From an uncultured Acidobacteriota bacterium (GTDB lineage: Bacteria > Acidobacteriota > Polarisedimenticolia > J045), in assembly GCA_963800865.1 (NCBI GenBank), contig CAWDCL010000004.1, positions 791,013 to 855,012 of the forward strand: a stretch of DNA of 64,000 bases, written 5' to 3'. Position numbers and translations under genes: made by a program. This document shows, one piece after another, positions 6,343 to 43,763 of the stretch (position 1 is its first letter; the number at the start of each line of letters is the position of its first letter). The notes below the pieces were generated by a model, which did no database searches, was not told the origin of the DNA, and worked only from the letters and a program-made list of their open reading frames with translations.

Positions 6343-7122
6343 TCAGACGCGCCAGGGCTCGGGAGCGGCCGGCCGATCCGGGAGGGGCGAGGCGGCGGCC
6401 AGCGCGCTGGTCACGAACCGGTGCGCGGCGGCAGCGGCGTCCGCGGCAGGCAGTCCCAGCGCGAGGTAGCCGGCCGCGGCGATCGATCGCGCCCCCGAGG
6501 CGCCGCGGCTGCCGGCGTGGGCGGTTGCGACCGCTTCGACGATCGACGCCTCCGCCGGCCCGGCGAGCGCCGCCGGCGTTCCGGTCGCAGCGTCGGCGCC
6601 CGCCCCGGCCCCGTCCGTGGCCCCGACCACCAGCGCGACCCGGGCCGGTCCCGCCAGCGCGCGGGCGAGTTCCAGGAGCGATTCCCGCGATCCGTCGTAC
6701 GGCCGCCCGGTCACCCGGGCGGCATCGGCGGCACCCGCGACCACGAGCGCCGCACCTGCGAGCGCTCCGAGCGCTCCCGGGCCGCGCCAGGCGAGGTCGG
6801 CCACCAGCGGCGCGCCCAGCGCCCCGGCGGCGGCGGCCACCGCCTCGGCCTGCGGCTCTCCGGCGAGGATCCCCGCGTGGACGACCCGCAGCGCGCCGTG
6901 CAACGCCTCCACGGCGGCGGCGAGCTGGTCGGCGAAAGTGCCGGGATCCACCGCGCGCCCCGGCCGCGTGCCGAGCGCACGGTCGACCGCGATCACCGCC
7001 GCGACCGGGGCCATCCGCACGCCCAGGCGCCCGAGGAACGCGCCATCGAGGCCGAGCCCGGTTTCGCCGGTGGGATCGAGCCGGCCGACGCTGAGGACGA
7101 TCGGGGTGGCACCGGAGAGCAA
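6343..7122 (-). CDS. ThiD/PdxK-like kinase of the ribokinase superfamily (divergent and possibly degraded)
   Basis: N-terminus VLSVGRLDPTGETGLGLDGAFLGRLGV aligns with ThiD TIAGTDPSGGAGIQADLKTFSALGA. Ala/Gly low complexity dominates, and the C-terminal GTGC motif is not obvious. The start is a TTG. Confidence 0.4.
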   Translation of the reverse strand: MLSGATPIVLSVGRLDPTGETGLGLDGAFLGRLGVRMAPVAAVIAVDRALGTRPGRAVDPGTFADQLAAAVEALHGALRVVHAGILAGEPQAEAVAAAAGALGAPLVADLAWRGPGALGALAGAALVVAGAADAARVTGRPYDGSRESLLELARALAGPARVALVVGATDGAGAGADAATGTPAALAGPAEASIVEAVATAHAGSRGASGARSIAAAGYLALGLPAADAAAAAHRFVTSALAAASPLPDRPAAPEPWRV

Positions 7123-7213
7123 GGGCCGCTCCTTCCAGGTGCATTATCCCCGCCCGCGCGCGCCGCGTCTCCGGCCCCGGGCGTCTCGGCGTATCTTCCG
7201 GCAGGAGCTGTCG

Positions 7214-10200
7214 ATGCGTGGAGGGGGGACCCGCCGGGCGTGGTGCGTCACGGTCCGCCGGGCTGCCCTCGCGGCGTGCCTCGCGGCGCTGCTCGCAGCG
7301 GGCCTGTCCGCTCCGCCCGCCCTCGCGGCACAGCCGCCCGCGGTGACGCACGACTGCGCGCCGCGGGTCAACACGCTGCCGCGGCCCTGTGACAACACCA
7401 CCGACGTGCCGTCCACCACGACGATCTACTTCGAGGTCACCGTCCCCTCGACGAATCCGGCCGCCGCCGACGTCGACCCGGACAGCGTCACCGCCTCGCT
7501 CTCGTGGCCCGGCGGCGGACCGCTGTCGATGCTCCTGCCGGGCCAGGTCCCCGGCGACGGGTTCGCCGGCCGCACGATCCCGCTCTTCACCGACGGCGGG
7601 CGGCGCGGCTACGGCTTCTTCATCGAGCCGCGGCAGCCGCTGCGGGCCTCGACCGTCTACACCGTGCGCGTCGACGCGCGGACCCTCTCCGGCGCGGCGC
7701 TCGACCCGGCCGGCGCGGCCTGGTCCTTCGCCACCCGCCGGCCGCTCGAGGGCGCGACGGCTCGTTTCGACGTCGACCTCGCCGCGCCCGCGTTGACCTG
7801 GCGGGGGCGGTTCTTCGCCGGTGCGATCAAGCCCAACTTCGGCACGTCGGCGCTGTTCCAGCAGGAGCCCGTCTACGCGCTGATCGATGCGGCGCGGGCC
7901 GACGCGCCGGAGTTCTTCCTCCAGCAGCGCGACTGGCCGCTGTTCGCCGACTTCTGGCAGGCCAACGGCTTCTTCGACGGCAACCCGAACCTGGTGCGCG
8001 AGCGCGAGACGCGGCGGATCACGCAGATGCAGGACGGCGGCTCGCGCACGGTCCTGACCGTGGCCGACATGCTCGAGGCACCGCTCTACAACATCGCGCC
8101 CAACCGGCCGCTGTCCCCGGACTACCATGCCGGCGACCAGGTACTGGTCTGCGACCGCAACAAGTGCGAGACCGCGACCGTGCAGTCGGTCAGCGACGCC
8201 CTGCGCCAGGTGAATGTCAGCCGTCTGGCGACCCCGCCGGGCAGCTGGACGCTGAACTGGGCCGGCTCGACGCCGCTGGACAACCCGGCGACCCCGGACA
8301 ACTTCTCGCTCCCGCTCGGCTCGTTGCGCAAGCTCGCGCCGGCGGGAACGCCCCGCTACTACTGGAAGCGCCTCGACGACGAGTGGGACCGCCACGTCGC
8401 GCACGGCCGGCGGCCGCACGTCAACTTCGCGGCCCCGCCCTACGACCTCAGCCGCACCGCGCTCGGCCAGGACCCCTCGGGCGGAGACTCGCCCTACCCG
8501 CCGAAGGACTGGACCGAGTGGCACCACGTGGTCCGGGCGGTCGTGTTTCACATCCTCGACCGCTACGGCGCACAGGTCGCCGACTGGACCTACACGGTCG
8601 GTAACGAGCCCGACCTCGACATCTTCTGGAAGGGGACCGACAACGAGTTCCTCGCCTTCTACGACCACACCGTGAACGCGGTTTTCAAGGCCTTCGAGGA
8701 GCGCGGGATCGACAGTGCGCGGATTCGCGTCGGCGGACCGGAAGCGACCGGCCTGTTCGAGGGCTACATCACGCAGATCCTCTACCACGCCTCGCCGACC
8801 GCGGTGAACCCGGCGGCCGGCTTCGAGGAGCGCAACTTCGTCTGCCTCGACCCGGCGTTCGCGCCGCTGCTCTCGCAGCGTCTCGCGGCGCACTGCGCGG
8901 CGCACCAGGACCGCGGCACGCCGCTCGACCTGGTCTCCGTCCACGGCTACAAGCGCGCCGCCGAGGCCGCGGCGACCCTGATCGGCGCGCGCAACCAGGC
9001 GCTCTCGATCGACGGGCCGTACTTCGCGGGGCTCTCGGTCAACAGCCACGAGACCACCCCGGACTGGATTCCCGGGCGCGATCCGGGATCGCGCGACATG
9101 TACCGCTGGGGCGGCTACTTCTCGTCCTGGGGGGCCGACTTCTTCCGCCGCCTGCTGGAGGAAGGGGCGGCCGATCCGCGCAAACGCGCCGGCGAGCTCA
9201 CGCTGACGACCTGGCCCTTCAACACCAACTTCTCCGGGTACGCCTGCATCGCCGGCCAGCTGCGGATCGACGCCGACGGCGACGGGACGCAGGACCGGGT
9301 CGACGCGGTGCCGGTCCCGTTCTTCCACATGGCGCACCTTGCGGCGCGGATGTCGCACGAGGTCGCCCCGCTGGCCGCTGTCGAGGACGCCGGCTCCCGG
9401 CTCTCCGGCTGGCGCTCGGTCGAGCCCGCGGCGGACCTCGTGCTGCTCTACGCGCACGACGCCGACGATGCGCCGGGCGAAGAGCGCGGAGGCTGGGACC
9501 TGACGCTGGCGCTGGCGAACCTGCGCTTCCCGCTGGTCGAGGTGACGGAGTACCGGCTCGACCGCGAGCACGCCGCGCGCGCGGCGCTCGACGCGCTCCC
9601 GGAGCGCGGCGAAAGCGGGGTCTACCGGCCGGACGAAGTGGCGGCGTTCGAGGCGGCGGCGAAGCTGGCGCCGTACGGTGCGCCGCAACGCCACGCCGTC
9701 GTCGCCGGCCGGCTCGATCTTCCGTCGCGCCTCGTGGCGCAGGGGGTCGTCTTCCTCGAGATCCGGCGCCCCGACCCCGATCGCGACGGCGTGTACGACC
9801 CGGACGACAACTGCCCCGACACGGTCAATCCCGACCAGCTCGACGCCGACGGCGACCTCCACGGCGACGCCTGCGACTGCGCGCCCGGCGATCCGCTGGT
9901 GTTCGCCGCGCCCCGCGAGGTGACGGGTCTCCAGCTCGGCGTGGACGGAGCGACGATCGCCTGGGACTCGGCGGCGCCGTTCTGCGGCAGCGCGACCGTC
10001 CACGACCTCTATCGCGAGGCCGCGGAGCGCGTGCCGGCGGGCGGCGCGGGGGGCGGCGCCTGCCTCGCCCCCGGGACGCCCGCGGCGTCGTTCGTGGACG
10101 CCGACCGCCCCGCGGCCGGGACCGGCTACCGCTACCTGGTGCGGGCGCGCAACGCCTGCGCGGCCGGGCCGTGGGGCGATTCCAGCGACGGCCTGCCGCG

Positions 10201-10222
10201 ACACGTGAGCGCTTGCCCGTAA
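7214..10222 (+). CDS. Large secreted protein (about 1000 aa). It has an N-terminal Ig-like region, a clan GH-A glycoside-hydrolase-like core, and a thrombospondin type-3 calcium-binding repeat near the C-terminus.
   Basis: Signal peptide AALAACLAALLAAGLSAPPALAAQP. The motif TVGNEPDLDIFWKGT contains NEP (the acid/base Glu context of GH39/GH5). DPDRDGVYDPDDNCPDTVNPDQLDADGDLHGDACDC is a TSP3 repeat. The ATG at 7214 was chosen. Confidence 0.6.
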   Translation: MRGGGTRRAWCVTVRRAALAACLAALLAAGLSAPPALAAQPPAVTHDCAPRVNTLPRPCDNTTDVPSTTTIYFEVTVPSTNPAAADVDPDSVTASLSWPGGGPLSMLLPGQVPGDGFAGRTIPLFTDGGRRGYGFFIEPRQPLRASTVYTVRVDARTLSGAALDPAGAAWSFATRRPLEGATARFDVDLAAPALTWRGRFFAGAIKPNFGTSALFQQEPVYALIDAARADAPEFFLQQRDWPLFADFWQANGFFDGNPNLVRERETRRITQMQDGGSRTVLTVADMLEAPLYNIAPNRPLSPDYHAGDQVLVCDRNKCETATVQSVSDALRQVNVSRLATPPGSWTLNWAGSTPLDNPATPDNFSLPLGSLRKLAPAGTPRYYWKRLDDEWDRHVAHGRRPHVNFAAPPYDLSRTALGQDPSGGDSPYPPKDWTEWHHVVRAVVFHILDRYGAQVADWTYTVGNEPDLDIFWKGTDNEFLAFYDHTVNAVFKAFEERGIDSARIRVGGPEATGLFEGYITQILYHASPTAVNPAAGFEERNFVCLDPAFAPLLSQRLAAHCAAHQDRGTPLDLVSVHGYKRAAEAAATLIGARNQALSIDGPYFAGLSVNSHETTPDWIPGRDPGSRDMYRWGGYFSSWGADFFRRLLEEGAADPRKRAGELTLTTWPFNTNFSGYACIAGQLRIDADGDGTQDRVDAVPVPFFHMAHLAARMSHEVAPLAAVEDAGSRLSGWRSVEPAADLVLLYAHDADDAPGEERGGWDLTLALANLRFPLVEVTEYRLDREHAARAALDALPERGESGVYRPDEVAAFEAAAKLAPYGAPQRHAVVAGRLDLPSRLVAQGVVFLEIRRPDPDRDGVYDPDDNCPDTVNPDQLDADGDLHGDACDCAPGDPLVFAAPREVTGLQLGVDGATIAWDSAAPFCGSATVHDLYREAAERVPAGGAGGGACLAPGTPAASFVDADRPAAGTGYRYLVRARNACAAGPWGDSSDGLPRHVSACP

Positions 10223-25831: not shown

Positions 25832-26416
25832 CTACTTCAGCTCGTCCGCGACCTTGCGGTGGGCGTCCTCGGCGAAGAACGCCGCCAGCCGATCGAGCGC
25901 CTCCTGCTCCTTCGCGTCGATCCGCGGGCCGAGGCCGAAGAAGGCGCCCGACGCCTCCGCGACCCGGCGCGAGAGCGCGACGATCTGCTCGCCCTTGACC
26001 ACGTCGCCCTTGAGGAAGTCGCGCAGCACGAGCCGGAGTTCGTCGTACAGCGCTCCCGAGGGCCGGGTATCCAGCAGCGACGCCATGAAGAGCCAGGGGT
26101 TGCTCTCGGCGGAGTAGCCGCGCGCCTCGACCAGCTTCATCACCTCCGCACGCTCGGAACGCGAGACCGAGCCGTCGGCCCAGGCCACCATCACCAGCGG
26201 CACCAGGTCCAGCAGCGGGGCGGTCTCGGTGGTGATCCCGAGCGCCTTGAGGCGGTCGGCCAGCGACACGTCCGAGAGCCCGGCCGCTTGCGCCAGCCGC
26301 TCCTTCTCGGCCAGTTCCGCGGCCCGGAGCTCCATCTCGGCGCGCACCCGGCGGCGGTGCGCGGCTTCCTGCTCGGCGAAGTACTTCTGCTCGTTCTCGC
26401 TGGGGTTCACGGGCAT
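25832..26416 (-). CDS. TerB-like-domain hypothetical protein
   Basis: VMVAWADGSVSRSERAEVMKLVE resembles the TerB/DjlA-N helical repeat. The assignment is weak. Confidence 0.4.
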   Translation of the reverse strand: MPVNPSENEQKYFAEQEAAHRRRVRAEMELRAAELAEKERLAQAAGLSDVSLADRLKALGITTETAPLLDLVPLVMVAWADGSVSRSERAEVMKLVEARGYSAESNPWLFMASLLDTRPSGALYDELRLVLRDFLKGDVVKGEQIVALSRRVAEASGAFFGLGPRIDAKEQEALDRLAAFFAEDAHRKVADELK

Positions 26417-26480
26417 CGGGTCACCTCCGGGGCGGCGCGCGGTCGCGCGGGGGAGAGGATACCGGGCTGGGCGGCGGATG

Positions 26481-28575
26481 CTAGCGGTCCGCGAGCAGCC
26501 CGAGCAGCTCGGCGCCGTAGCGGTCGAGCTTGGCCGGACCGACCCCCTTGATGCGGGCCAGCGATTCCAGGCTGCCCGGACGGCGGCGCGCGAGCTCCTC
26601 CAGCACGCTGTCGTGGAAGACGGTGTAGGCCGGAGTGCGGGCCGCGGCGGCGCGGCCGCGGCGCCATTCCTTCAGCCGTGCAAGCAGGGCCGGGTCGGGC
26701 GGCTCGGCGGACAGGTCGGCCAGCGCCCGCGGCGCCTCGCGCGGCGCGCCGCGTCGGCGCGCCCGGGGCGGCGGCGGTTCGGCGGGGAGGCGCGGTGCGG
26801 GGAACGGCAGCTCCGGCCGCACGTCGCCTCTCATGACGCGAGCCCCTTCCGGCGCGAGGCCCAGCACCGCGGCCCCGGCGCGGGCCCCGGCGATTGCGCG
26901 CCGCTCGACCAGCCCGGCCGAGACGAGCACGTCGAGCAGCTCGCGGATCGCCTCCAGTGGCAGCGCCGCCAGCCGGCCGTGCGTCGGCAGCGCTGTCGAG
27001 CCCGCGGTCGACGACCTTCCGGTCGCTGCTCCCGGCCAGCACCAGCGCGATGACCTCTCCGCCGAAGCGGCCGTCGAGCCGTGCGACCGCGGAGAGCGCG
27101 ATCCTCACCCGCTCGTATTCGGCGTCGCTGAGCGGCCGCACCGGCGCCGTGCGCTCGCCCGAGCAGACGTCGCAGGCGCCGCAGCGCGGCGCGACGCCGC
27201 CCCGCGCCGCGCCGGCGAAGTAGTCGTAGATGTAGCGCGTCCGGCAGGCGCGGTGGAAGGCGTAGCGCACGATCGCGTCCAGTCGTTGACGGTCGCGCCG
27301 CGCCTTCTCCGCGCGCGCATCGAGGTCCAGCGGCAGCGGTCCCTGGCCCGGCGCGACGCCACGCGCCTCGGCCGCCTGCCGCAGCAGGCGCACCGCGGTC
27401 GCGGCGGCCATCGATTCCGCCGCGGTCCGCCCGGCGCGGGTCCCGAGCGACTCGAAGTCCTCCTCGCCTTCGCAGCCGGCGAGCAGCTCCCAGGTGCGCC
27501 GCAGCGTCGCCTCGTCGGGGTTCGAGCCCTCGAGGAAGAACTCCTGCGTGCGGATGTCGGCCGGCGAAAAGAGCAGCTCGCAGCGCGCCGGCTTGCCGTC
27601 GCGCCCGGCGCGGCCCGCCTCCTGGTAGTAGGCCTCGACGCTGCCCGGGATGTCGGCGTGCACGACGAAGCGGATGTCCGGCTTGTCGATGCCCATGCCG
27701 AACGCGTTGGTGGCGGCGATCGCGTCGAGTTCGCCCGCCAGGAAGGCGTCCTGCACCCGCACCCGCTCGGCGTCGGCCACGCCGCCGTGGTAGGCCCCGG
27801 CGGTGAGGCCCAGCGCGCCCAGCGCGTGGGCCCACTCGTCGACCGCCTTGCGCGTCGCCGCGTAGACGATCCCGGGCGTCCCGGCGGCGCGCACGACGCG
27901 GGCCAGCTCGCGGTGTTTCTCCGCCCGCGTGCGCACCGGGACGACCGCCAGCGAGAGGTTGGGGCGCTCGAAGCCGGTGACCACCTCGAGCGGGTCGTCG
28001 AGCGCCAGCTGGCGCGCGATGTCGGCCCGGACGTCGGGCGTGGCGGTCGCGGTGAAGGCCCCGGCCGGCACGCCGAGCTGCGCGCGCAGCGGACCGAGCC
28101 GCAGGTAGTCGGGGCGGAAGTCGTGGCCCCAGGCGCTGATGCAGTGGGCCTCGTCGACGACCAGCCGGACCACGCGCAGCGCCGCGAGCCGCGCCAGGAA
28201 GCCCGGCGCGGCGAGGCGCTCGGGCGCGACGTAGAGCAGCCGCAGCGCGCCGTCGGCGAGCGCGCGCTCGGCCGCCGCGCGCTCCGCCGGCCCCTGGCCG
28301 GAGTGCAGCGCGGCGGCGGCGAGCCCCTTCGCGGCCAGCGCGTCGACCTGGTCCTTCATCAGCGCGATCAGCGGCGAGACGACCAGCGTCACGCCGTCGA
28401 GCAGCAGCGCCGGCAGCTGGTAGCAGAGCGACTTGCCGGCGCCGGTCGGCATGACCGCCACGACGTCGCGCCCGGCGTAGAGCGCCTCGGCGGCCTCGCG
28501 CTGGCCGGGGCGGAAGGCGCCGTGGCCGAAGGCGGCGGCGAGGGCGGCGTCGAGCGAGGTCGGGGGAGCGGCCAT
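26481..28575 (-). CDS. recQ: ATP-dependent DNA helicase RecQ, interrupted by a +1 frameshift near 26985 between the RQC/WH and HRDC domains
   Basis: FRPGQREAAEAL...PTGAGKSLCYQLPAL...DEAHCISAWGHDFRP...ATNAFGMGIDKPDIRFVVH, plus the RQC Zn Cys cluster. The HRDC domain (ARLKEWRRGRAAAARTPAYTVFHDSVLEELARRRP) is in the adjacent frame. Confidence 0.85.
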
Positions 28576-28709
28576 GGAGGAGGGAGTGTAGCGGAGGCCG
28601 CTCCAGGGGGACGGTTCCGGTCGCGCGGCCGCCTCGCCGCCACGCCGTTGGGGCCGCGAATCGCGCGATAATCGCGTGGTTCCGCCCCTCCCGCCGGAGA
28701 ACCGACGCC

Positions 28710-29710
28710 ATGAGGCGCTGCCCGCCGCCCGTCCTGGCCCTGCTCGCATTCCTGCTCCTGGTGGCGTCGTGCGGCGGGCCTCCCGCGGGCGGGAAGCCCG
28801 ACGCGCCGTCGCCCGCGCCCGCCGGCCGTCCTCGCCGTCGCCGGCGGGCCAGCCCGCCGCCGGCCCGGCCAAGGTGATCGGCGTCACGCTGCTGAACCGC
28901 GGCGCGCTCTTCTACCGCGACCTCGAGGAGGGGCTCCGCGAGGCGGCGGGGCGCCACGGCTTCGAGCTGGTCGTCACCGCGGCCGACTTCGACCTGGGCC
29001 GGCAGTCGGCGCAGATGGAGGACTTCGTCGCCCGCAAGGTCGACGCGATCGTGCTCTGCCCGGTCGACTCCAAGGGGGTCGGCCCCGCGGTGCGGCGCGC
29101 GAACGCGGCCGGGATCCCGGTCTTCACCGCCGACATCGCGGCGCAGGAGGGCGAGGTCGTCTGCCACGTCGCGTCCGACAACGTGGCCGGCGGCCGCCTG
29201 GCCGGCGAGTACCTGGCGAAGGCGCTCGGCGGGAAGGGGCGCGTGGCGATCATCAACCAGCCGGTCGTCACCTCGGTGCTCGACCGCGTGCAGGGCTTCC
29301 GCGAGGCGATCGCGCGCTTTCCCGGGATCGAGATCGTGGCCGACGTCAACGGGCAGGGGGTGCGCGACAAGGCGCTCGAGGCGACCTCCGACGTGCTGCA
29401 GGCCCACCCGGAGCTGGGCGGCATTTTCGGGATCAACGACGACTCGGTGCTGGGCGCGCTCGACGCGGTCCGTCAGTTCAAGCGCGACGGCGTCGTGCTC
29501 GTCGGCTACGACGCGACCGAGCCGGCCGTGGACGCGATCACGAAGGGGACCGCGCTCAAGGCCGACGTGATCCAGTACCCGCGCAAGATCGGCGTGACGA
29601 CGATCGACACGATCGCCGCGCACTTCTCCGGCACCGCGCTGCCGAAGACGATTCCCGTCGAGGTCGGCATCGTCGACAAGGAGTCGCTGGCGGCCCCCGC
29701 CGCGCGATGA
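28710..29710 (+). CDS. Sugar ABC transporter periplasmic substrate-binding lipoprotein (RbsB/LacI-type fold); a frame change lies in the Pro/Ala linker near 28820-28850
   Basis: MRRCPPPVLALLAFLLLVASCGG lipobox in frame 0. The mature domain KVIGVTLLNRGALFYRDLEEGLREAA...DNVAGGRLAGEYL is in frame 2. Confidence 0.7.
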
Positions 29711-31258
29711 CCGCTCCGCCGCTGCTCGCGATGCACGGCGTCTGCAAGGCGTACGGGGGGGTCCCGGCGCTGCAGGACGTGTCGTTCGAGCTGCGGGCCG
29801 GCGAGGTCCGCGCGCTGGTCGGCGAGAACGGGGCGGGGAAGTCGACGCTGGTCAAGATCCTCTCCGGCGCGATCGCGCGCGACCGCGGCACGATCCGGCT
29901 CGACGGTGCGCCGGTCGAGGTCCGCTCGCCGGCGGCGGCGCTGGCGCTGGGGATCGGGATGATCTACCAGGACCCGCAGCTGGTCCCCGCGCTGACGGTC
30001 GCGGAGAACGTCTTCCTCGGCGCCGAGACGGTGCGCGGCGGCGTCCCGCTGGTCGACCGGCCCGCGATGGAGCGCGCGGCGCGCGGACTGCTGGCGGAGC
30101 TGGGCGAGGCGCTCGATCCGGCGGCGCCGGTCGGCAGCCTCTCCGCGGCCCGGCGCCAGGTCGTGGCGATCGCCCGCGCGCTGTCGCGCCGCGTTCGGAT
30201 CCTCGTGCTCGACGAGCCGACCGCCGCGCTGACCGGGCACGAGGCGGAGAACCTGTTCCGGATGGTGCGCCGGCTGCGCGGCGCGGGGGTCGGCGTCGTC
30301 TACATCACGCACCGGCTGGACGAGGTCTTCGCGCTGGCGGACAGCGTGTGCGGTGCTGCGCGACGGCCGCGAGGTGCTGACCGCGCCGGCGCTCGAGCTC
30401 GACCGGCGGGCCCTGATCCGCGCGATGGTCGGGCGCGACCTGGTCCGCGAGTACCCCGCCGCGAGCCGCGAGCGCGGCGAGGAGCTGCTGCGCGTCGAGG
30501 GCCTCGTCAGCGGCCTCGTCGGCCCGGTCGGCTTTGCGCTCTACCGGGGCGAGATCCTGGGCCTCGCCGGCCTGGTCGGGTCGGGCCGCAGCGAGCTGGC
30601 GGCCGCGCTCTTCGGCGCGGCGCCGCGCGACGCCGGCCGCGTGCTCCTCGACGGGCGCGAGATCGACCCGCGCACGCCCGGCGAGGCGATCGCGCTGGGC
30701 CTGGGCCTTCTGCCCGAGGACCGCGACCGGCTGGGCCTCGTCGGCTCGATGGACGTGCGCGAAAACGTCACGCTGGCCAACCTCGACGACGTCGCGACCG
30801 GCCCCTTCGTGCGCCGCGGGCGCGAGGAGGCCGCAGCCCGCGCGCGGGTCGACGAGCTGCACATCCGCCCGGCCGACACCGCGATGCCGGTCCCGCACCT
30901 CTCGGGCGGCAACCGCCAGAAGGTCGTGCTGGCGCGCTGGCTCCACACCCGCTCGCGCGTGCTGCTCTTCGACGAGCCGACCGCCGGCGTCGACGTCGGC
31001 GCGCGCTTCGAGATCTACACGCTGATCCACCGGCTGGCCGCGGCCGGGACCGGCGTGCTGGTCATCTCGTCCGACCTGCCGGAGCTGCTGGGGATCTGCG
31101 ACCGGATCCTGGTGATGTGCGAGGGGCGGCTGGCCGGGGAGTATCGCGCGGCGGAGGCGACGCAGGAGGGGATCATGCACCTCGCTTCCGGGGGCGCGGA
31201 TGGGGCCGGCGGCGGCGGGAGCGGGGCGGCCGGCCCGCCGGCGGGGGAGGACGCGTGA
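29707..31258 (+). CDS. Sugar ABC transporter ATP-binding protein (tandem NBDs, RbsA/MglA-like), with a +1 frameshift near 30345-30352
   Basis: NBD1: GENGAGKST, LSAARRQ, ILVLDEPTAAL. NBD2 is in the next frame: GLVGSGRSEL, LSGGNRQK, LLFDEPTAGVD. Confidence 0.85.
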
Positions 31259-32211
31259 CGGGCGCCCTCCTCCGGCGCTGGAACCGCAGCGGCGAGCTGG
31301 GGATCCTCGCCGCGGTGGTGCTGGAGTGCCTCGTGCTGGCCGCGCTCTCGCCCCACTTCTTCACCGCCGAGAACCTGCTCAACGTCTCGCTGCAGGCCTC
31401 GATCACCGCGATCATCGCGGCCGGGATGACCTTCGTGATCCTGACCGGGGGGATCGACCTGTCGGTCGGCTCGCTGGTCGCCGCGGCCGGGATCGCGGCC
31501 ACCAGCGTGCTCCAGGCCCACCTGGCGCCGGGGCTGGCCTACCCGCTCGCGGTCGCCGCGGGGCTGGCGCTGGGAGCGCTCTCGGGTGCGGTGGCCGGGC
31601 TGTTCGTCACGCGCTTCGGGATCGCGCCGTTCATCGTCACGCTCGCGCTGATGACGGTCTGGCGCGGCGCGGCCTTCGTGTTCACCGAGGGGCGGCCGGT
31701 CTGGGAGCTGCCCGAGGGGTTCGCGCGGCTCGGCGGCTCGCGGATCGCGGGGCTGCCGACGCCGACGATCGTGATGCTCGCGGTCTACGCCGTGGCGCAC
31801 GTCGTGCTCCGCGCCACCCGCTTCGGCCGGCACGTCTACGCGGTCGGCGGCAACCCCGAGGCGGCGCGCCTGGCCGGGATCCGGACCGGCCGCGTCGTCG
31901 CGGCGACCTACGTCCTGTGCGGCACGCTGGCCGCCGCCGCCGGGATCCTGCTCGCCTCGCGCATGAACTCGGGCCAGCCCAACGCCGGGATGATGTACGA
32001 GCTGGACGCGATCGCCGCGGTGGTCGTCGGAGGGACCAGCCTCTCCGGCGGGCGCGGCTCGATCGCCGGAACTTTCCTGGGCGCGATGCTGATCGCCGTG
32101 CTGCGCAACGGCCTGAACCTGCTCAACGTCAACTCCTACGTCCAGCAGGTCGTCGTCGGCGTCGTGATCCTGCTGGCCGCGCTGCTCGACCGCCTGCGCC
32201 GCAGGCCCTGA
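31255..32211 (+). CDS. Sugar ABC transporter permease (RbsC/AraH-like)
   Basis: GTG start with GTGA overlap. The product has multiple TM segments and the conserved loop GGTSLSGGRGSIAGTFLGA. Confidence 0.8.
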   Translation: MTGALLRRWNRSGELGILAAVVLECLVLAALSPHFFTAENLLNVSLQASITAIIAAGMTFVILTGGIDLSVGSLVAAAGIAATSVLQAHLAPGLAYPLAVAAGLALGALSGAVAGLFVTRFGIAPFIVTLALMTVWRGAAFVFTEGRPVWELPEGFARLGGSRIAGLPTPTIVMLAVYAVAHVVLRATRFGRHVYAVGGNPEAARLAGIRTGRVVAATYVLCGTLAAAAGILLASRMNSGQPNAGMMYELDAIAAVVVGGTSLSGGRGSIAGTFLGAMLIAVLRNGLNLLNVNSYVQQVVVGVVILLAALLDRLRRRP

Positions 32212-32220
32212 GAGGTCACC

Positions 32221-35200
32221 ATGAACCGTCGCTGCACCGTCGCCGCGCTCGCCGTCGCCCTGCTGGTCACGGGCCTCGTCTCCTTCCTCCCCGCGATCGC
32301 GGCGGACTCGGCGGTCGACCGGCTCGTCGCCCGCTTCGACGAGCTGACCCTGACCGGCCTGGACGGCTGGCGCGTCAGCCCCGACCTGAAGACCAGCCCG
32401 ATCGCGGGGGACGCGCCGGCGCAGCCGGCGTTCGACGACTCCGCGTGGGCGCACGCTGAAGATCGACGAGCGGCTCTACGCCGACTCGGTCTGGCTGCGG
32501 CGGCGCGTCGTGATCCCGCAGACGGTCGCCGGGATGGCGGTCGACGGGCCGCTGACGCTGAAGCTGACGGTCAACGACTACGGCTTCCTCTGGGTCAACG
32601 GGAAGGAGCTGGGCCGCTTCGACTGGAACGGCTCGTTCGCGCTGACGGACGACGCCCGCCCGGGCGAGGTCTTCGACATCGCGATCAAGGCGGTCAACAC
32701 GGCCGGCGCGCTGCAGCTGCTCCGCGCCGACCTGCTGCTCGAGGAGGCCGCGCGCCAGCCGGCAGGAGATCAACGACTTCGCGCTCAGCCTGCGGGTCGG
32801 GCAGAAACTGCTGGGCTTCGACACCTACCAGACCAACGCGCGCCAGAAGGTCGACCCGGGGATCGATCGCTCGACCGCCGATCGGGCGGAAAAGCAGCGG
32901 CTGAACGCGCTCCTGCAGGAGATCGCGGCGGGGATCGACACCAAGGCGCTCGAGGCGGGGGACCTGGCGCGCTACCGGGCGTCGGTCGACGCGGCGCGCG
33001 CGCGGCTCGGCCCGATCAAGGAGTTCGTGAAGAGCTACACCCTCTTCTTCGCCGCCAACGCCCACATCGACGCGGCCTGGCTCTGGCGCGAGGGCGAGAC
33101 GATCGCGGTCTGCAAGAACACCTTCGCGTCGGTGATGAACATGGCCCGCGCGCGGACCGACTTCAGCTACACCCAGAGCTCGGCCGCCTACTACGACTGG
33201 ATGGAGCGGCTCTACCCCGAGCTGTTCGGCGAGATCAAGGCGCGGATCGGCGAGGGGCGCTGGGAGGTCGTCGGCGGGATGTGGGTCGAGCCCGACTGCA
33301 ACCTGCCGTCGGGGACCTCGTGGGCCCGCCAGCTGCTCTACGGCAAGCGCTACTTCCGGGAGAAGCTCGGCGTCGACGTCACGATCGGCTGGAACCCCGA
33401 CTCGTTCGGCTACAACTGGAACATGCCGCAGTTCTACCGGAGCGCGGGCATCGACGCCTTCATCACCCAGAAGATCGGCTGGAACGAGAAGAACGTCTTC
33501 CCGCACCGCGCCTTCTGGTGGGAGGGGCCCGACGGCTCGCGGATCCTCTCGTACTTCCCGTTCGACTACGTCAACACGATCGACGACCCGGCCAGGCTGG
33601 TCGACTGGCTGCGCCAGTACGACGCCAACACCGGCTTCCGGAAGATGTTCGTGCTGTTCGGCGTCGGCGACCACGGGGGCGGCCCGTCGATCGAGATGAT
33701 CGGGCGGATCGACCGGCTGAAGACGCTCGACATCTTCCCATCGATCGACTTCGGGACCGCGGGCGAGTACCTGGGGTGGATCAAGCAGCAGGACCTGACG
33801 AAGCTGCCGGTCTGGCGCGACGAGCTGTACCTCGAGTACCACCAGGGGACCTTCACCACCCAGGCGAAGATCAAGGAAGCGAACCGCCGCAGCGAGATGC
33901 TGCTGACCGGCGCGGAGGCCTTCTCGGCGATCGCGGCGCTCTCCGGCCGGCCCTACGGGGGCGCGCGGCTCGAAGCGGCTTGGCGCGACGTGATGTTCAA
34001 CCAGTTCCACGACATCCTGCCCGGCTCGTCGATCCGCGAGGTCTATCTCGACGCCGCCGAGCGTTACCGCGAGGCCGAGGCGCTGGCGGGGCACGAGCTG
34101 TCGGGCGCGCTCGACCACCTCGCGGGGCAGGTCGACACGTCGCGGCTGGCGGGCGAGGCGGTCGTCGTCTTCAACCCGCTGGGCTGGGACCGCCCGGGCC
34201 TGGTGCGCGTGCCGCTTCCGGCCGGGGACGAGGCCGAGGTCGCGGTCTTCGACGTCGACGGCCGCGAGCTGCCGTCGCAGGCGGTCGCCACGGGGACGCT
34301 GACGCGCGAGGTGCTCTTCATGGCGCCGAAGGTCCCGTCGCTGGGCTACGCGACTTTCGAGTTGCGCCGGAATCCGCCGCGGGCGAAGTTCCCGGGGACG
34401 CTGACCGTCACGGAATCGGCCCTGGAGAACGACGCCTTCCGCGTCGCGCTCGACCCGGCCTCGGGCTGGATCCGCAGCATCGTCGACAAGCGCACCGGAC
34501 GCGAGGTGCTGGCCGGGCCCGCGAACCGGCTGCAGCTCCTGGAAGACAAGCCGGAGGCCTGGGACGCCTGGAACGTCGGGCTGACCGGCACCGAGTACCC
34601 GTCCACGCTGCGCTCGATCGAGGTCGTCGAGCGCGGGCCGGTGCGCGTCGTGCTGCGGGTCAAGCGCGACTTCCTCGCCCCCGGCACGAAGAAGGAGGCC
34701 CCGACCGAGGACTTCCCGAGCAGCTTCTTCACCCAGGACATCGTGCTCTACGCGGGATCCGACCGGATCGACTTCATCACGCGGGTCGACTGGTGGGAGC
34801 AGAAGACGATGCTCAAGGTCGCGTTCCCGGTCGCGGTGACCAGCGACGTCGCGACCTTCGAGATCCCGAACGCGACGATCGAGCGCTCGACCGGACTCGA
34901 AACGCCGCAGGAGCAGGCCCAGGTCGAGGTGCCCGCCCAGCGCTGGGCCGACCTGTCGCAGGCCGACCACGGGGTCAGCCTGCTCAACGCGGCGAAGTAC
35001 GGCTACGACGTCAAGGGGAACACGCTGCGGCTGTCGCTGCTCCGATCGCCCGTCTGGCCCGACCCGACCGCGGATCGCGGCAAGCACGTCATCGAGTACG
35101 CGCTCTACCCGCACGCGAAGGGCTGGCGCGAGGCCGGGACCGTGCGCCGCGGCTACGAGCTGGACCACCCGCTGCTGGTGGCACGCACCGGGCGCCACGC

Positions 35201-35489
35201 CGGGGCCCTGCCGGCCGAGCAGTCGTTCGTGCGGCTGGCGCCGGACAGCCTCGTGCTCACCTCGATCAAGAAGGCCGAGGACTCGGCCGCGTGGGTCGTG
35301 CAGTGGTACGACGCCCACGGCGACGGCGCGGCGGCGACGCTGACGCTCCCCGCGGCCCCGGCCCGGGCGGTGACCAGCGACTTCCTCGAGGCCGACGGCG
35401 CACCGCTGGCGGTGGAGGGGCGGGGGGTCAAGGCGCCGACCGGACGGCGCGCGACGGTGACGGTCAAGGTCGCGCTCCCGCCCGCCTAG
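32221..35489 (+). CDS. GH38 alpha-mannosidase with a ~270-aa N-terminal extension (signal peptide plus beta-sandwich sugar-binding-like region). There are two +1 frameshifts, near 32452-32456 and 32757-32763. A GTG at 33027 is an alternative start for a stand-alone GH38 protein.
   Basis: Signal MNRRCTVAALAVALLVTGLVSFLPAIAA. FDDSAWAH/LKIDERLYADSVWLRRRVVIP resembles a GH2-N-like segment. Three consecutive frames carry real protein. The GH38 core has FAANAHIDAAWLW (HxDxxW), WNPDSFG, GVGDHGGGP and EYHQGTFTTQ. Confidence 0.8.
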
Positions 35490-35595
35490 CCGCGGCCCCT
35501 CGCAGGGGGCGCGGGGCCCGCCGGGGGCCGCGACGGGGGCGGGGCAACGGCGCTACAATCCCCGCTCCCCGTCCCCCCTTCGCGAGAGCCATCCC

Positions 35596-37119
35596 ATGCC
35601 CGTCCGCATCACCGGCAAGAGCCTGTCCATCGAGGACGTCGTCCGCGTCGCGCGGCACGGCGAGCGCGTCGAGCTCGACCCCGCGGCGCTGGAGCGGATC
35701 AAGACCTGCCGCGCGATGCTGCAGCGCAAGCTCGACGCGCGCGAGGTGATGTACGGCACCAACACCGGGATCGGCGAGATGTCGGAGATCGTGCTGAACG
35801 ACGAGGAGGTCGCGCAGTTCCAGCGCTATCTCATCTACAACCACGCCGCGGGGATCGGCGAGCCGGCGCCGGTCGAGCACGTGCGGGCCGCGATGCTGTC
35901 GCGCATCAACGTCCACGCCAACGGCCACTCGGCCTGCCGGCCCGAGATCACCGGGACCTACGTCGCGCTGCTCAACGCCGGGATCACGCCGGTGGTCTGC
36001 GAGAAGGGAAGCGTCGGGGCCTGCGGCGACCTGGCGCCGATGAGCCAGCTCGCGCTGTCGCTGATGGGCGAGGGCGACTGCTTCTGGAACGGCGAGCGGA
36101 TGCCGACCCGCACGGCGATGGAGCGGGCCGGGGTCCCGGTGCCGGGGCTGCAGGCCCGCGACGGCCTGGCGGCGATCAACGGCAGCAACCTGATCACCGG
36201 GATCGGCTGCCTGTTTCTCTACGACGCGCTGCGCTGGACGAAGCAGGCCGAGATCGCGGCGGCGATGACGCTCGAGGCGCTGATCGCCAACCTCAAGCCC
36301 TACCAGTCGAAGCTGCACGAGCTGCGCGGCTTCCCCGGCGCGGTCGCCTGCGCGGCCAACCTGCGCGCGGTACTGGACGGCTCCGACCTGCTGACCGGCA
36401 AGCTCAAGACCAAGGTCCAGGACGCGTATTCCATGCGCTCGACGCCGCAGGTGATCGGCGCGCTGCGCGACGCGCTGGGCTGGGCGCGCGCACAGCTCGA
36501 GATCGAGCTGAACGGCGTCGCCGACAACCCGATCTTCGTGCCCGACGAGGACCGCGTCTACACCGGCGCCAACTTCCAGGGTTCGCCGATCAGCCTGCCG
36601 CTCGACATGGCGGCGGCGGCGGTGACGATGGTCTCGGTCCTCAGCGAGCGCCGGCTCAACCGGCTGCTCAACCCGGCGCTGTCGGTCGGCCTGCCGCCCT
36701 TCCTGACCGCGCACGCCGGGATGTTCTCGGGCCTGATGCTGAGCCAGTACACCGCCGACATGCTGATCGTCGAGCAGCGGATCCTGTCCACCCCGTCGTG
36801 CACGCAGTCGATCCCGGCCGCCGCGGACCAGGAGGACTTCGTCAGCATGGGGATGAACGGCGCGCTCAAGGCGGTGCAGATCCTGAAGAACGCGCACGGC
36901 GTGCTGGCGATCGAGTTCATCGGCGCGGCGCAGGCGCTCGACTTCCGGGAGCACGGCTTCGGGCGCGGGGTGAAGGCCGCCCAGGGCGCGGTCCGGAAGG
37001 TCGTCGCGCACCTCGGCGAGGACCGGCCGCTCTTCCCGGACCACAACGCGATGATGGCCGCGGTGGCCGGCTGCGCGGTGCTGGACGCAGTCGAGGCGGA
37101 GGTCGGGCGGCTCGGGTAA
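35596..37119 (+). CDS. Histidine/aromatic-amino-acid ammonia-lyase family (MIO enzyme)
   Basis: GTNTGIGE, YNHAAGIG and GSVGACGDLAPMSQLAL are colinear with HAL. The MIO-forming tripeptide reads Ala-Cys-Gly rather than Ala-Ser-Gly. No hutU or hutI genes are adjacent. Confidence 0.8.
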   Translation: MPVRITGKSLSIEDVVRVARHGERVELDPAALERIKTCRAMLQRKLDAREVMYGTNTGIGEMSEIVLNDEEVAQFQRYLIYNHAAGIGEPAPVEHVRAAMLSRINVHANGHSACRPEITGTYVALLNAGITPVVCEKGSVGACGDLAPMSQLALSLMGEGDCFWNGERMPTRTAMERAGVPVPGLQARDGLAAINGSNLITGIGCLFLYDALRWTKQAEIAAAMTLEALIANLKPYQSKLHELRGFPGAVACAANLRAVLDGSDLLTGKLKTKVQDAYSMRSTPQVIGALRDALGWARAQLEIELNGVADNPIFVPDEDRVYTGANFQGSPISLPLDMAAAAVTMVSVLSERRLNRLLNPALSVGLPPFLTAHAGMFSGLMLSQYTADMLIVEQRILSTPSCTQSIPAAADQEDFVSMGMNGALKAVQILKNAHGVLAIEFIGAAQALDFREHGFGRGVKAAQGAVRKVVAHLGEDRPLFPDHNAMMAAVAGCAVLDAVEAEVGRLG

Positions 37120-37146
37120 TCTCTCCCGTCGTCCCGGAGGTCACCG

Positions 37147-38151
37147 ATGCGCCCGCTCGCTGCCGTTCCGCTCGCCCTCTCCCTGCTGGCCGCCGCGCCG
37201 GCCGCTGCACCGGTCCTCGCCCAGGAGTTCGGCCCCGCCCGCCCGGTCACCGTGCGCGAGTTCGTGCTGACCTACGAGGTCCGGGTCAAGGACGTCCCGG
37301 CCGGCGCGAAGTCGGTCCAGGTCTGGCTGCCGATGCCGATGTCGACCGTACTCCAGGAGGTCAGCAACCCGCGGATCGATCCGGACCCGACCCCGAAGCG
37401 GTTCGTCAGCGACGACCCGTACGGAACGCGCTTCCTGGTGCTCGAACTGACCCCGCCGCCGGAAGGCGGGACGACGGCGCCGGTCACCGTCGCGTTCACC
37501 GTGCTGCGCAAGGGCTACCGCGGCGCCGCGCCGCTCACCGGCCAGGGGAGCCGCGTCCCGGCCGAGCGCTGGCTGGCCGCCGATCCGCGGACGCCGATCG
37601 ACGGCAAGGTCGCGGACGCGGCCCGCGCGGCGGTCGGTGACGCGACCGAGCCCGTGGCGAAGGCGAAGCGGCTGTACGACGCGCTGATGGCCGGTGTGAA
37701 GCTCGACCCGACCGGCGAGAGCTGGGGCGCCGGCGACGCGGCCTCGGTCCTCGACGTGAAGGCGGGTGGACCGCGCGACCTGGTCGCGCTGTTCGTCGGC
37801 GAGGCGCGCAGCGTCGGCGTTCCGGCCCGATTCGTCTCGGGCTTCGTGCTGCCGCCGGCCGTGAAGGAAGGATCGCTCGTCTCCGACGAGGCCTGGGCCG
37901 AGATCCGGCTCGAAGGGAAGGGGTGGCTGCCGGTCGACGTGGTCTCCGGGAAGCGCTACCCGGACGCGACGGAGGTCTACTTCGGCGCGGTCGACGAGCA
38001 CCGGGCGCAGGTCGCGATCGGCCGCGACGTGAAGGTCCCCGAGTACCCGGGACCGAAGCAGGAGATCGTCGCCTGGCCGCTCGCGGCGGTGGACGGCGCC
38101 GCCGTGCCGCCCGCCAAGGTCGACACCGCGCTGCGCTTCGCGCAGCGCTGA
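37147..38151 (+). CDS. Secreted transglutaminase-like-domain protein, probably non-catalytic
   Basis: Signal peptide. The core GDAASVLDVKAGGPRDLVALFVGEARSVGVPARFVSGF...DEAWAEIRLEGKGWLPVD keeps the TGase-like fold, but the Cys and His positions appear to be substituted. Confidence 0.55.
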   Translation: MRPLAAVPLALSLLAAAPAAAPVLAQEFGPARPVTVREFVLTYEVRVKDVPAGAKSVQVWLPMPMSTVLQEVSNPRIDPDPTPKRFVSDDPYGTRFLVLELTPPPEGGTTAPVTVAFTVLRKGYRGAAPLTGQGSRVPAERWLAADPRTPIDGKVADAARAAVGDATEPVAKAKRLYDALMAGVKLDPTGESWGAGDAASVLDVKAGGPRDLVALFVGEARSVGVPARFVSGFVLPPAVKEGSLVSDEAWAEIRLEGKGWLPVDVVSGKRYPDATEVYFGAVDEHRAQVAIGRDVKVPEYPGPKQEIVAWPLAAVDGAAVPPAKVDTALRFAQR

Positions 38152-38167
38152 GCGAGGCCGCCGGCGC

Positions 38168-39235
38168 GTGCCGCCGACCGTCCAGCTGATCGAGCCGTAC
38201 CACGGCGAGTCGCACGCCCGCCTCGTCGACGGGATGGTCCGGCGCCTGCCGTTCGACTTCCGCCTGCTGACGATGACGCCGCGCAAGTGGAAATGGCGGA
38301 TGCGCGGCGCGGCGCTGTGGGCGGCCGACGCGCTGGCCGGCGCGCCGCCGGCCGAGGTGCTGTTCGCGTCGGCCTACCTGTCGCTGCCGGACTTCCTGGC
38401 GCTGGGACCGCGCTGGTCGCGCGACGCGCTCAAGGTGGTCTACTTCCACGAGAACCAGTTCGTCTACCCGGCGCGGCTGGAGAAGGAGTGGGACTTCCAC
38501 TTCGCGCTCTCCAACGTGACGACCGCGCTGGCGGCCGACCGCGTGGCCTTCAACAGCGCCTACAACCGCGACTCGTTCCTGGGCGCGATCCCGGGCTTCC
38601 TGAAGAAGTTCCCCGACTACCGGCCCGAGCGCGTCGCCGAGCGGATCGCGGAGCGCTCGCGCGTGCTGCCGGTGCCGCTCGAGCCGGAGGAGTTCACGGA
38701 CCTGCCCCGGCCCGCGCGTGAGGGCCCGGCGCGGATTCTCTGGAACCACCGCTGGGAGTACGACAAGAACCCCGAGGAGTTCTTCGAGGCGCTGTTCCGG
38801 CTGGCCGACGCCGGCCTGCCGTTCGAGGTCGCGGTGGCGGGGGAGTCGTTCGCCGAACGGCCGCCGGTCTTCGACGCGGCGCGGGAGCGGCTGGGCGGGC
38901 GGATCGTGCACTGGGGCTTCGTCGAGTCGCGGCGGGCCTACCTGGAGCTGGCCGCCTCGTGCGACCTGGTGGTCTCGACGGCGCTGCACGAGTTCTTCGG
39001 CGTCGCGGTCCTGGAGGCGGTGCGCGCGGGGTGCTTTCCGGTGCTGCCGGACCGGCTGTCGTACCCGGAGCTGTTTCCAGCCGGGCACCTGTATCGCGAG
39101 GGGACGCTGGTCGAGACGCTCGCGCGGCGGATCGAGGCGATCGATGCCGTGCGGGGGCAGGACCTGCGGGGGCTGGCGGCGCGGTACGAGTGGCCGGCCT
39201 GGGAACCGGGCTATCGCGCGCTGCTGGAGCGGTGA
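38168..39235 (+). CDS. Glycosyltransferase with a DUF3524 N-terminal domain and a GT4-like C-terminal domain (homologous to GTDC1 / queuosine-tRNA mannosyltransferase)
   Basis: IEPYHGESHARLVDG...YFHENQFVYP N-terminus, and the GT1/GT4 C-terminal motif EFFGVAVLEAVRAGCFPVLPD. The start is a GTG. Confidence 0.65.
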   Translation: MPPTVQLIEPYHGESHARLVDGMVRRLPFDFRLLTMTPRKWKWRMRGAALWAADALAGAPPAEVLFASAYLSLPDFLALGPRWSRDALKVVYFHENQFVYPARLEKEWDFHFALSNVTTALAADRVAFNSAYNRDSFLGAIPGFLKKFPDYRPERVAERIAERSRVLPVPLEPEEFTDLPRPAREGPARILWNHRWEYDKNPEEFFEALFRLADAGLPFEVAVAGESFAERPPVFDAARERLGGRIVHWGFVESRRAYLELAASCDLVVSTALHEFFGVAVLEAVRAGCFPVLPDRLSYPELFPAGHLYREGTLVETLARRIEAIDAVRGQDLRGLAARYEWPAWEPGYRALLER

Positions 39236-39310
39236 GACGCGCCCCGGCCCCGCGAGGGAGCCGGGACGCGCGCGAACGCAATCAGACGATCAAGACCGAG
39301 GGTGAGCCCG

Positions 39311-39559
39311 TCACTCCGTCGGAACCGGGCCGCCGTCGGTCGGGTAACAGGGCTTCGGCGCCTTGGCCACGTCGGCGTAGCACTGGTTCGAGTAGACGAC
39401 GCCGTCGGCGCAGATCACCGGATCCCACACGTCCGGGCAGACCTTCCCGCCGCCGCCACCGCTGGGCGGCTTCTTGCCGGCCATGGCCGTTCCGATCGCC
39501 AGCGCGAGCGCCAGCACCAGCACGAATCCGATCAGCAGGCGAACACTCTTCTTCCTCAT
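39311..39559 (-). CDS. Small secreted Kazal-type-like protein (82 aa)
   Basis: GGGAGGA RBS. Signal peptide MRKKSVRLLIGFVLVLALALAIGTAMA. CPDVWDPVICADGVVYSNQCYADVAKAPKPC matches the Kazal pattern C..(PVC)..DG.TYsN.C....C. Confidence 0.55.
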   Translation of the reverse strand: MRKKSVRLLIGFVLVLALALAIGTAMAGKKPPSGGGGGKVCPDVWDPVICADGVVYSNQCYADVAKAPKPCYPTDGGPVPTE

Positions 39560-39784
39560 CCGGATCCTCCCTTGGCTGGGGCCGGACGATGCGGTCCGGC
39601 GGCAGGAGCCGTTGCTACCACAGCTCTCGGTGACGATTCAAGCGGCGGCCCGTGGGGGCACCTGGCCGCCATGTCCAGACCCCGACCGGGGGTACTTCCG
39701 CTGCACCGGCAGGACGCATTCTAGGCAGGTTCTTCGTCCCGGGATCAAGCGCGCAACCCCATCGGAGCAGGTCACCGCCCCCCG

Positions 39785-39950
39785 CGACGCGAAACGCGGC
39801 ATCCTCCCAGTGGCTGCGGTCGGCCGGAGTTCTTCCGGTACAGACCGTCCGATCCGCAGGCGCGGGAGCAGCGCTCCGCGTGACGAGATGCCTCGAGGCA
39901 CGCTAGGATCGGTGCTCCGGCGAGCCGGGTTGAAGCGAGGTCGGCCATGA
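39785..39950 (+). pseudogene. HicA-like toxin remnant (internally deleted or degraded) whose stop overlaps the hicB start
   Basis: IRRRGSS...MPRGTLGSVLRRAGLKRGRP* resembles the HicA segments RxKGSH and LPxGTLxSILKQAGL, but about 17 residues are missing between them. The last four bases overlap the hicB start as ATGA. Confidence 0.3.
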
Positions 39951-40210
39951 GGAAGTACCACTACCTGGTTCGAATCACGAGGGACGCCGACAGCGACTGG
40001 GGCGCATCGGTGCCGGATCTGCCCGGGTGCGTCGCCACCGGAAAAACGCTCGATACCGTCATCCGTCGCATTCAGGTCGCCATCACGCTTCACATCCGGG
40101 GGTTGCGCGACGACGGGCTGGCCGTGCCCCGGCCGCGGGCGCGCGCCGTGATGCCGCGCCGGACCGGGAAGCCGTTCGATGTCTGTGCCACCGTGGAGGT
40201 GGCCGCGTAG
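39947..40210 (+). CDS. hicB: HicB-family antitoxin
   Basis: YHYLVRITRDADSDWGASVPDLPGCVATGKTLDTVIRRIQVAITLHI is the HicB/UPF0150 signature. Confidence 0.75.
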   Translation: MRKYHYLVRITRDADSDWGASVPDLPGCVATGKTLDTVIRRIQVAITLHIRGLRDDGLAVPRPRARAVMPRRTGKPFDVCATVEVAA

Positions 40211-40224
40211 TCGCCGGCGTCCCA

Positions 40225-43763
<3,539 letters not shown>

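Follow-up and report, generated by a model that had tools for sequence, protein, structure and literature searches.

Results

An ammonia-lyase gene with cysteine in its presumed cofactor tripeptide

The stretch of DNA analysed here (64 kb from an uncultured Acidobacteriota bacterium, hereafter the window) carries on its forward strand a gene for an ammonia-lyase of the family that works with the 4-methylidene-imidazol-5-one (MIO) cofactor. This cofactor arises, according to textbooks and reviews, from a tripeptide X-Ser-Gly, and in the window gene the serine of that tripeptide is replaced by cysteine. Our comparisons indicate that the gene probably encodes a divergent histidine ammonia-lyase (HAL, HutH) whose MIO would be formed from the cysteine, and that it belongs to a tight, widespread subfamily in which cysteine is usual and serine the less common residue. 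We refer to this subfamily as the clade; 81 of its genes were read at the DNA level (80 species-level genome loci and the window gene), and a set of 200 sequences pools its members, with all 80 genome loci coming from metagenome-assembled genomes (MAGs). The gene and the features within it are the following.

35596..37119 (+): MIO-family ammonia-lyase gene, 507 amino acids; probable divergent histidine ammonia-lyase of the 'Tyr-Asn-His' clade, from PF00221, HAL models ranking first and colinearity with homologues
35836..35853 (+): substrate-selectivity motif Tyr81-Asn82-His83-Ala-Ala-Gly; HAL has Ser-His here, the clade an invariant Asn-His
36019..36027 (+): presumed MIO precursor Ala142-Cys143-Gly144, codons GCC-TGC-GGC, Cys replacing Ser, from the sequence and alignments
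36736..36738 (+): Met381, which is Met382 of Pseudomonas putida HAL, a HAL-specific pocket residue; Met in 81/81 clade genes
36826..36843 (+): Asp411-Gln-Glu413-Asp-Phe415-Val, the HAL 'NQEDHV' region; Glu413 is HAL Glu414 and invariant in the clade, which carries the changes N412D and H416F

The open reading frame (ORF) starts at the most upstream ATG in its frame, its GC content at third codon positions (GC3) is 0.98, and the frame plot also fits a real gene in a window of 73% GC. It is intact, and residues 1-507 are colinear with more than 100 homologues. Pfam assigns the protein to PF00221 (Lyase_aromatic) over the full length of the family (E=1.7e-160, 535 bits, residues 10-467 on profile positions 1-465 of 466). 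The identical protein sequence was not found on a database record, and a scan of 32900-39700 returned no promoter-like sites and terminator-like sites at chance level.

The translation contains the loop peptide GSVGACGDLAP, in which Ala142 (GCC, 36019-36021), Cys143 (TGC, 36022-36024) and Gly144 (GGC, 36025-36027) form the tripeptide. Phmmer alignments to solved structures set this Ala-Cys-Gly (ACG) on the MIO residue 'X' of both SgTAM (2ohy) and the HAL of T. acidophilum (7tqr), and a MAFFT alignment sets it opposite Ala142-Ser143-Gly144 of P. putida HAL. Cys143 occupies the MIO serine position. The canonical criterion of the MIO superfamily (PF00221) is an X-Ser-Gly tripeptide, as a rule Ala-Ser-Gly, within a loop GS(V/L)GASGDLxPL, and the lyase departs from it in having Ala-Cys-Gly, with the rest of the loop intact. 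A first-pass annotation of this DNA had described the protein as colinear with HAL and had placed the cysteine of the loop at the serine position; the alignment to P. putida HAL agrees with the former, and the codons together with the alignments to 2ohy, 7tqr and P. putida HAL agree with the latter.

Spread of the clade and of its cysteine

A genome scan found the clade in at least 600 matching stretches, from which the 80 loci were kept. Their labels cover Acidobacteriota/Thermoanaerobaculaceae, Gemmatimonadales, Eisenbacteria, Elusimicrobiota, Planctomycetota, Anaerolineae, Bacteroidota/Ignavibacteria, Cloacimonadota, WOR-3, Aminicenantes, Vulcanimicrobiota and others. Across these labels, a dozen at phylum level, pairwise identity inside the clade has a median of 72% and a minimum of 62%, compared with a median of 42% among canonical HAL representatives, and the nearest representative outside the clade is 52% identical. 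In the 200-sequence set 138 of the 507 columns are invariant. This conservation (loci L001-L080 and proteins P0001-P0120) is unusually tight for a catabolic enzyme, and it reflects either very strong constraint or horizontal spread on a large scale.

ACG is present in all 12 of the nearest homologues (P0001-P0012, 81-99% identical), which come from assemblies of JGI, ENA, NCBI and Logan; of the 120 database proteins closest to the lyase, 111 have it and eight have Ala-Ser-Gly (ASG). The corresponding numbers are 67 ACG and 14 ASG for the 81 clade genes, and 178 Cys and 22 Ser for the 200 pooled sequences. Whether the codon might instead stem from an error in base calling or assembly, or the lyase be a decaying pseudogene, is a fair question given that frame changes in the window's recQ, ABC ATPase gene and metH point to errors in this assembly. 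Those errors are indels, however, and none is a substitution; the lyase ORF is unbroken and lines up with its homologues from end to end, and the nearest homologues with ACG come from independent projects. Since ACG recurs across independent assemblies and throughout the clade, the cysteine is not a sequencing error; the comparative data rule this source out, and to the explanation by error or decay as a whole we assign a negligible chance.

Cysteine and serine interchange at position 143

At position 143 the cysteine codons of the 81 clade genes are TGC (53 genes) and TGT (14), and the serine codons are AGC (nine), AGT (two), TCC (two) and TCG (one), which makes 11 AGC/AGT and three TCC/TCG. 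Both serine codon sets lie one step from TGY, so that they cannot be explained by fewer than two independent changes. Fitch parsimony on a neighbour-joining tree built with column 143 removed puts cysteine at the root of the clade and counts about 12 Cys/Ser changes within it, a number that is approximate because the tree is rough. Among the 200 clade sequences we found no column that strictly tracks the Cys/Ser state, only partial associations that are confounded by phylogeny.

The tripeptide also occurs outside the clade, in eight of the best 150 representatives at 50% clustering. Two of these eight, P0194 and P0212, reach 650.6 and 550.6 bits on the hutH equivalog model (cut-off 539). The lineage of P0194 holds 57 ACG and 63 ASG sequences and includes histidine ammonia-lyases so named by NCBI from MAGs of Silvanigrellales and Bradymonadales; both of its two proteins from named Fluviispira species have ASG. 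The tripeptide variants SSG and TSG are present among the family representatives as well.

Judged from these sequences, cysteine and serine are freely and repeatedly interchangeable at position 143 in nature. Such an interchange amid a frozen active site would be expected if both side chains serve as mere carriers of a leaving group. The first-pass annotation had held a natural Cys variant to be plausible but unusual. The plausibility is upheld, and the Ser-to-Cys HAL mutant to which that annotation appealed matches the S143C enzyme reported in 1994 (see Discussion); the word unusual needs qualifying, given that ACG prevails in a clade of at least 600 stretches and recurs in other lineages that NCBI names HAL. 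As a separate observation, cysteine at this position (36022-36024 and its equivalents in L001-L080) may act as a one-step bridge between serine codon sets that are otherwise disconnected.

Active-site residues and family models

We numbered the active-site alignment on P. putida HAL, with the reference sequence taken from the 1gkm alignment. None of the 81 clade genes varies at Y53, H83, N195, Q277, Y280, R283, F329, M382 or E414, and the window lyase has each of these residues, as Tyr53, His83, Asn195, Gln275, Tyr278, Arg281, Phe327, Met381 and Glu413 in its own numbering. Most of the catalytic and substrate residues of HAL are listed in the paper on GkHAL (PMC11432326), which also describes a Ser-His dyad of HALs as a substrate switch (PMC11432326). 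The first-pass annotation had proposed an alignment of the selectivity residues around YNHAAG, and this alignment locates the difference within the dyad: position 83 is His in 81/81 clade genes, and position 82 is Asn in 81/81 as against Ser in 121 of 128 other family representatives. The window lyase has thus retained the His and exchanged the Ser for an invariant Asn (S82N), giving the motif YNHAAG. The surroundings of the cofactor, A142, G144, D145 and F329, are invariant in the clade. At the positions of HAL Glu414 and Met382 the phmmer alignment shows Gln and Ala in SgTAM; the window lyase keeps the Glu and Met of the HAL type. For the tyrosine and phenylalanine lyases and aminomutases, the pocket looked for was one with Gln or Asn replacing Glu414 and lacking Met382.

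Among the NCBIfam models, those for HAL rank first for the window lyase. We also scored the non-HAL models TIGR03832, TIGR04475, TIGR01226, NF053541 and NF041222, and all remain far below their cut-offs: tyrosine 2,3-aminomutase (TIGR03832) gives 386.6 bits (cut-off 501), phenylalanine aminomutase 334.9 (800), the FlxA tyrosine ammonia-lyase (TAL) 321.6 (700), the BagA TAL 218.2 (1000) and phenylalanine ammonia-lyase (PAL) 217.5 (519).

Genomic context of the orthologues

ORFs within 7 kb of the lyase were clustered by all-against-all BLASTP for the 80 loci and the window. No conserved partner emerged from this set except urocanase (hutU, five loci) and a canonical HAL paralogue (four loci), the other recurrent clusters being generic (histidine kinases, ABC ATPases and similar). 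The urocanase gene lies immediately downstream of the clade gene in L014, L015 and L016 (Elusimicrobiota), L066 (Planctomycetota) and L067 (Anaerolineales), that is, in five of the 65 loci whose downstream flank is at least 1.8 kb long, and all five of these clade genes encode ACG. In L014 hutU is followed by a DUF520 gene and then by hutI (TIGR01224, 401.5 bits, cut-off 298), and in L067 a GntR/UTRA regulator with HutC as its best match stands before the clade gene. The orthologues that adjoin hutU argue that the clade converts histidine to urocanate.

The canonical paralogue is found in Cloacimonadota, where a clade gene is followed in tandem by canonical hutH in L029 (4746-7862), L034 (120-3209), L060 (3097-6176) and L080 (8724-11793). 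This second gene has Ser-His and ASG, reaches 681 bits on TIGR01225 and shares only 42-43% identity with its clade neighbour; no hutU lies nearby.

Discussion

The residues and the context described above suggest that the window lyase is a divergent HutH, for which the predicted reaction is the conversion of L-histidine to trans-urocanate and NH3. We infer histidine as its substrate from the conservation of residues together with the context of the orthologues, and its physiological role is likewise presumptive. During folding, the amide nitrogen of Gly144 would attack the carbonyl of Ala142, with cyclisation and loss of H2O, and the side chain of Cys143 would then be β-eliminated as H2S where a serine would lose H2O. 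The product would be the same 4-methylidene-imidazol-5-one electrophile, and from there catalysis would follow canonical HAL with the nine residues given above. We infer this route to the cofactor from the exchangeability of cysteine and serine and from an engineered mutant: Langer, Lieber and Retey reportedly showed in Biochemistry in 1994 that the S143C variant of P. putida HAL is converted post-translationally into a fully active enzyme.

Several observations weigh against the assignment to HutH. The lyase scores 519.7 bits on the HAL subfamily model NF006871, just under the cut-off of 524, and 507.1 bits on the hutH equivalog TIGR01225, under the cut-off of 539.15; other members of the clade do exceed the NF006871 cut-off, at 539-545 bits, and TIGR01225 was passed by none of the members scored. 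With P. putida HAL the lyase shares only 35% identity, and in the phmmer search of the PDB the top match is shared between SgTAM (307.7 bits) and an archaeal HAL (307.1 bits). Five pocket-adjacent positions, S82N, Q198N, S410A, N412D and H416F, differ invariantly in the clade from canonical HAL. Neither hutU nor hutI is present anywhere in the 64-kb window by tblastn and Pfam, in agreement with the first-pass annotation, which had noted that they were not nearby; most contexts of the clade gene, that of the window included, are unrelated to histidine use, and hutU is next door at only five of the 65 loci. The tandem with canonical hutH in Cloacimonadota hints at some functional difference between the two genes. 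Finally, HAL activity and a Cys-derived MIO are, for the clade as a whole, predictions drawn from sequence comparison.

Part of this evidence would fit a sub-functionalised paralogue of HutH, which might act on a substrate similar to histidine but distinct from it, for instance a methylated or otherwise altered histidine or a histidine derivative, or might supply urocanate for use outside the Hut pathway, of which electron acceptance in anaerobes would be one example. The five altered pocket positions, the tandem arrangement, the scores under the equivalog cut-off, the absence of hut neighbours at most loci and a median identity so much higher across many phyla than that of the canonical representatives all speak for such a paralogue, and the Cloacimonadota tandem in particular keeps this explanation alive. 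We nevertheless consider it unlikely, though with a chance that deserves to be taken seriously, as the HAL residues that contact the imidazole, the carboxylate and the amine are all kept, ACG orthologues of three phyla are accompanied by hutU, hutI and a HutC-like regulator, which implies urocanate as the product, and no gene of an alternative pathway recurs beside the clade gene in the 80 loci. A broader proposal is that the Tyr-Asn-His/Ala-Cys-Gly clade constitutes a distinct MIO enzyme, either with a novel substrate or role related to histidine or with a maturation from cysteine whose consequences, such as release of H2S or a persistent sulfur species, are absent from Ser-derived MIO. This proposal would explain both the tandem with canonical hutH and the extreme conservation across phyla, and we give it a small chance.

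It may also be asked whether the cysteine is processed at all. A protein in which it stays unprocessed would lack MIO and could be inactive or regulatory, could use a thiol-based or other mechanism, or could hold a different sulfur-containing cofactor; natural ACG enzymes are known to us as sequences, and the fold does have MIO-less members, such as ergothionase (6s7j), which is among the PDB matches of the lyase (E=5e-59). Cysteine and serine have been swapped repeatedly, however, while the other catalytic residues never change, and a repeated swap is expected only if the product is the same, because what the two side chains share is that they can be β-eliminated and not their nucleophilic chemistry. 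The residues that shape the cofactor (A142, G144, D145 and F329) are likewise invariant, and S143C HAL is reported to mature to a fully active enzyme, so that we hold an MIO-less protein to be very unlikely. A lyase or 2,3-aminomutase acting on tyrosine or phenylalanine and feeding secondary metabolism, which is close to what the first-pass annotation had in mind when it suggested that the substrate might not be histidine but that of an aromatic lyase or aminomutase, could point to SgTAM as the top PDB match, if by a narrow margin, and to a window without hut genes. Set against these are the model scores, 507-520 bits for HAL and at most 387 for tyrosine and phenylalanine lyase or mutase models that need 500-1250, the HAL-type Glu413 and Met381 where SgTAM has Gln and Ala, the invariance of the HAL-diagnostic His83, Met382 and Glu414 and of the catalytic residues, the lack of a biosynthetic cluster nearby and the orthologues with ACG that adjoin hutU and stand in hut clusters of three phyla. 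The suggestion of a non-histidine substrate was accordingly not upheld, and we regard an enzyme of this kind as highly improbable.

Read as a divergent HutH, the lyase resembles the characterised enzyme (EC 4.3.1.3; P. putida HAL, PDB 1b8f and 1gkm) in fold, in length, in all catalytic and substrate residues and in the loop GSVGAxGDLAP, and orthologues in its clade stand in hutH-hutU-hutI clusters. It differs in the middle residue of the tripeptide, in having Asn-His for Ser-His and in the four further pocket changes. The S143C mutant of P. putida HAL has the same Ala-Cys-Gly precursor at the equivalent position, and its reported activity would imply that elimination of H2S leads to the same electrophile; that mutant, however, is a single engineered change in a canonical HAL, whereas the cysteine of the clade is natural, in the majority, ancestral by parsimony and recurrent in other HAL lineages. 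Known natural variants of the MIO tripeptide likewise give MIO from an altered autocatalytic tripeptide, but in those the first residue is altered and the serine donor is kept, whereas in the clade the donor itself is replaced. SgTAM (SgcC4, PDB 2ohy) shares the fold and is the top phmmer structure, and it has Ser-His at positions 82-83; Gln for Glu414, Ala for Met382 and the score of the window lyase on TIGR03832 set the two apart.

The lyase adds a new protein to the HAL family, within an unusually conserved subfamily. A full-text search of the searchable literature for Ala-Cys-Gly with MIO found no natural X-Cys-Gly precursor, and a natural exchange of the donor serine for cysteine appears not to have been reported before, although given the 1994 mutant it would come as no surprise. 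If our reading of the sequences is right, cysteine as the methylidene donor would be routine in nature, in the majority and probably ancestral in a clade of hundreds of species and present in other HutH lineages besides. For annotation, this means that patterns or rules demanding serine would miss or down-rank real enzymes. For biochemistry, the clade would offer a natural system in which MIO matures through elimination of H2S instead of H2O, and for the study of evolution a natural example of cysteine as a viable bridge between the TCN and AGY serine codon sets at an essential residue. Little would change in the biology of this particular genome, in which the gene is most likely that of an ordinary histidine ammonia-lyase.

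Surroundings of the gene in the window

The immediate neighbours of the lyase gene are the following.

33027-35489: GH38 α-mannosidase, upstream neighbour
37147..38151 (+): transglutaminase-core protein with a signal-peptide-like N-terminus, 27 bp past the lyase stop (PF01841, E=1.1e-17)
38168..39235 (+): QTMAN_N / GT4 glycosyltransferase, second downstream neighbour (PF12038, E=1.1e-55; PF00534)

The first-pass annotation had named a transglutaminase-like protein and a glycosyltransferase as neighbours, which is correct for the downstream side; the α-mannosidase upstream was not mentioned. Further out lie recQ and a sugar ABC transporter upstream and metH downstream, and the remainder of the window is housekeeping. 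No biosynthetic cluster was found near the lyase, the surrounding genes being of housekeeping or sugar-uptake type. The transglutaminase-core gene is probably co-transcribed with the lyase. The order lyase-transglutaminase-glycosyltransferase is shared only with the 89%-identical locus L081 and is gone at 82% identity (L082), and no transglutaminase-core gene flanks the clade gene at any of the 80 other loci. We considered the transglutaminase and the glycosyltransferase as functional partners and rejected them on this ground: neighbours shared with L081 alone are uninformative about the function of the lyase.

In L081 the order is recQ-lyase-transglutaminase-glycosyltransferase, and in the window the first two of these genes are separated by about 6.8 kb of additional DNA (28676-35489), which encodes the binding protein, ATPase and permease of a sugar ABC transporter together with the GH38 α-mannosidase. 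This block resembles a mannoside-utilisation cassette inserted specifically in this lineage.

Three genes in this region are interrupted by changes of frame. The recQ gene (26481-28887, -) is split over two frames with the change at about 26992-27002, so that the helicase, Zn-binding and RQC domains are found in ORF 26407-28887 and HRDC in a separate ORF, 26481-26930; its orthologue in L081 is a single gene of 684 amino acids, and the split in the window is probably an indel error of the assembly, or else a pseudogene. The gene for a two-domain sugar ABC ATPase (29707-31258, +) changes frame near 30250, as seen in the GC3 frame plot and in Pfam domains spread over overlapping ORFs, and that for the B12-dependent methionine synthase metH (39638-43763, -) does so near 41000 and 40400, as seen in the GC3 frame plot and in split Pfam domains. 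That three genes show such in-gene frame changes within 15 kb suggests indel errors in the assembly. Elsewhere in the window, an ORF of 1201 amino acids at 6617-10222 (+) has a weak, partial match to GH39 at residues 580-794 only and is otherwise unannotated.

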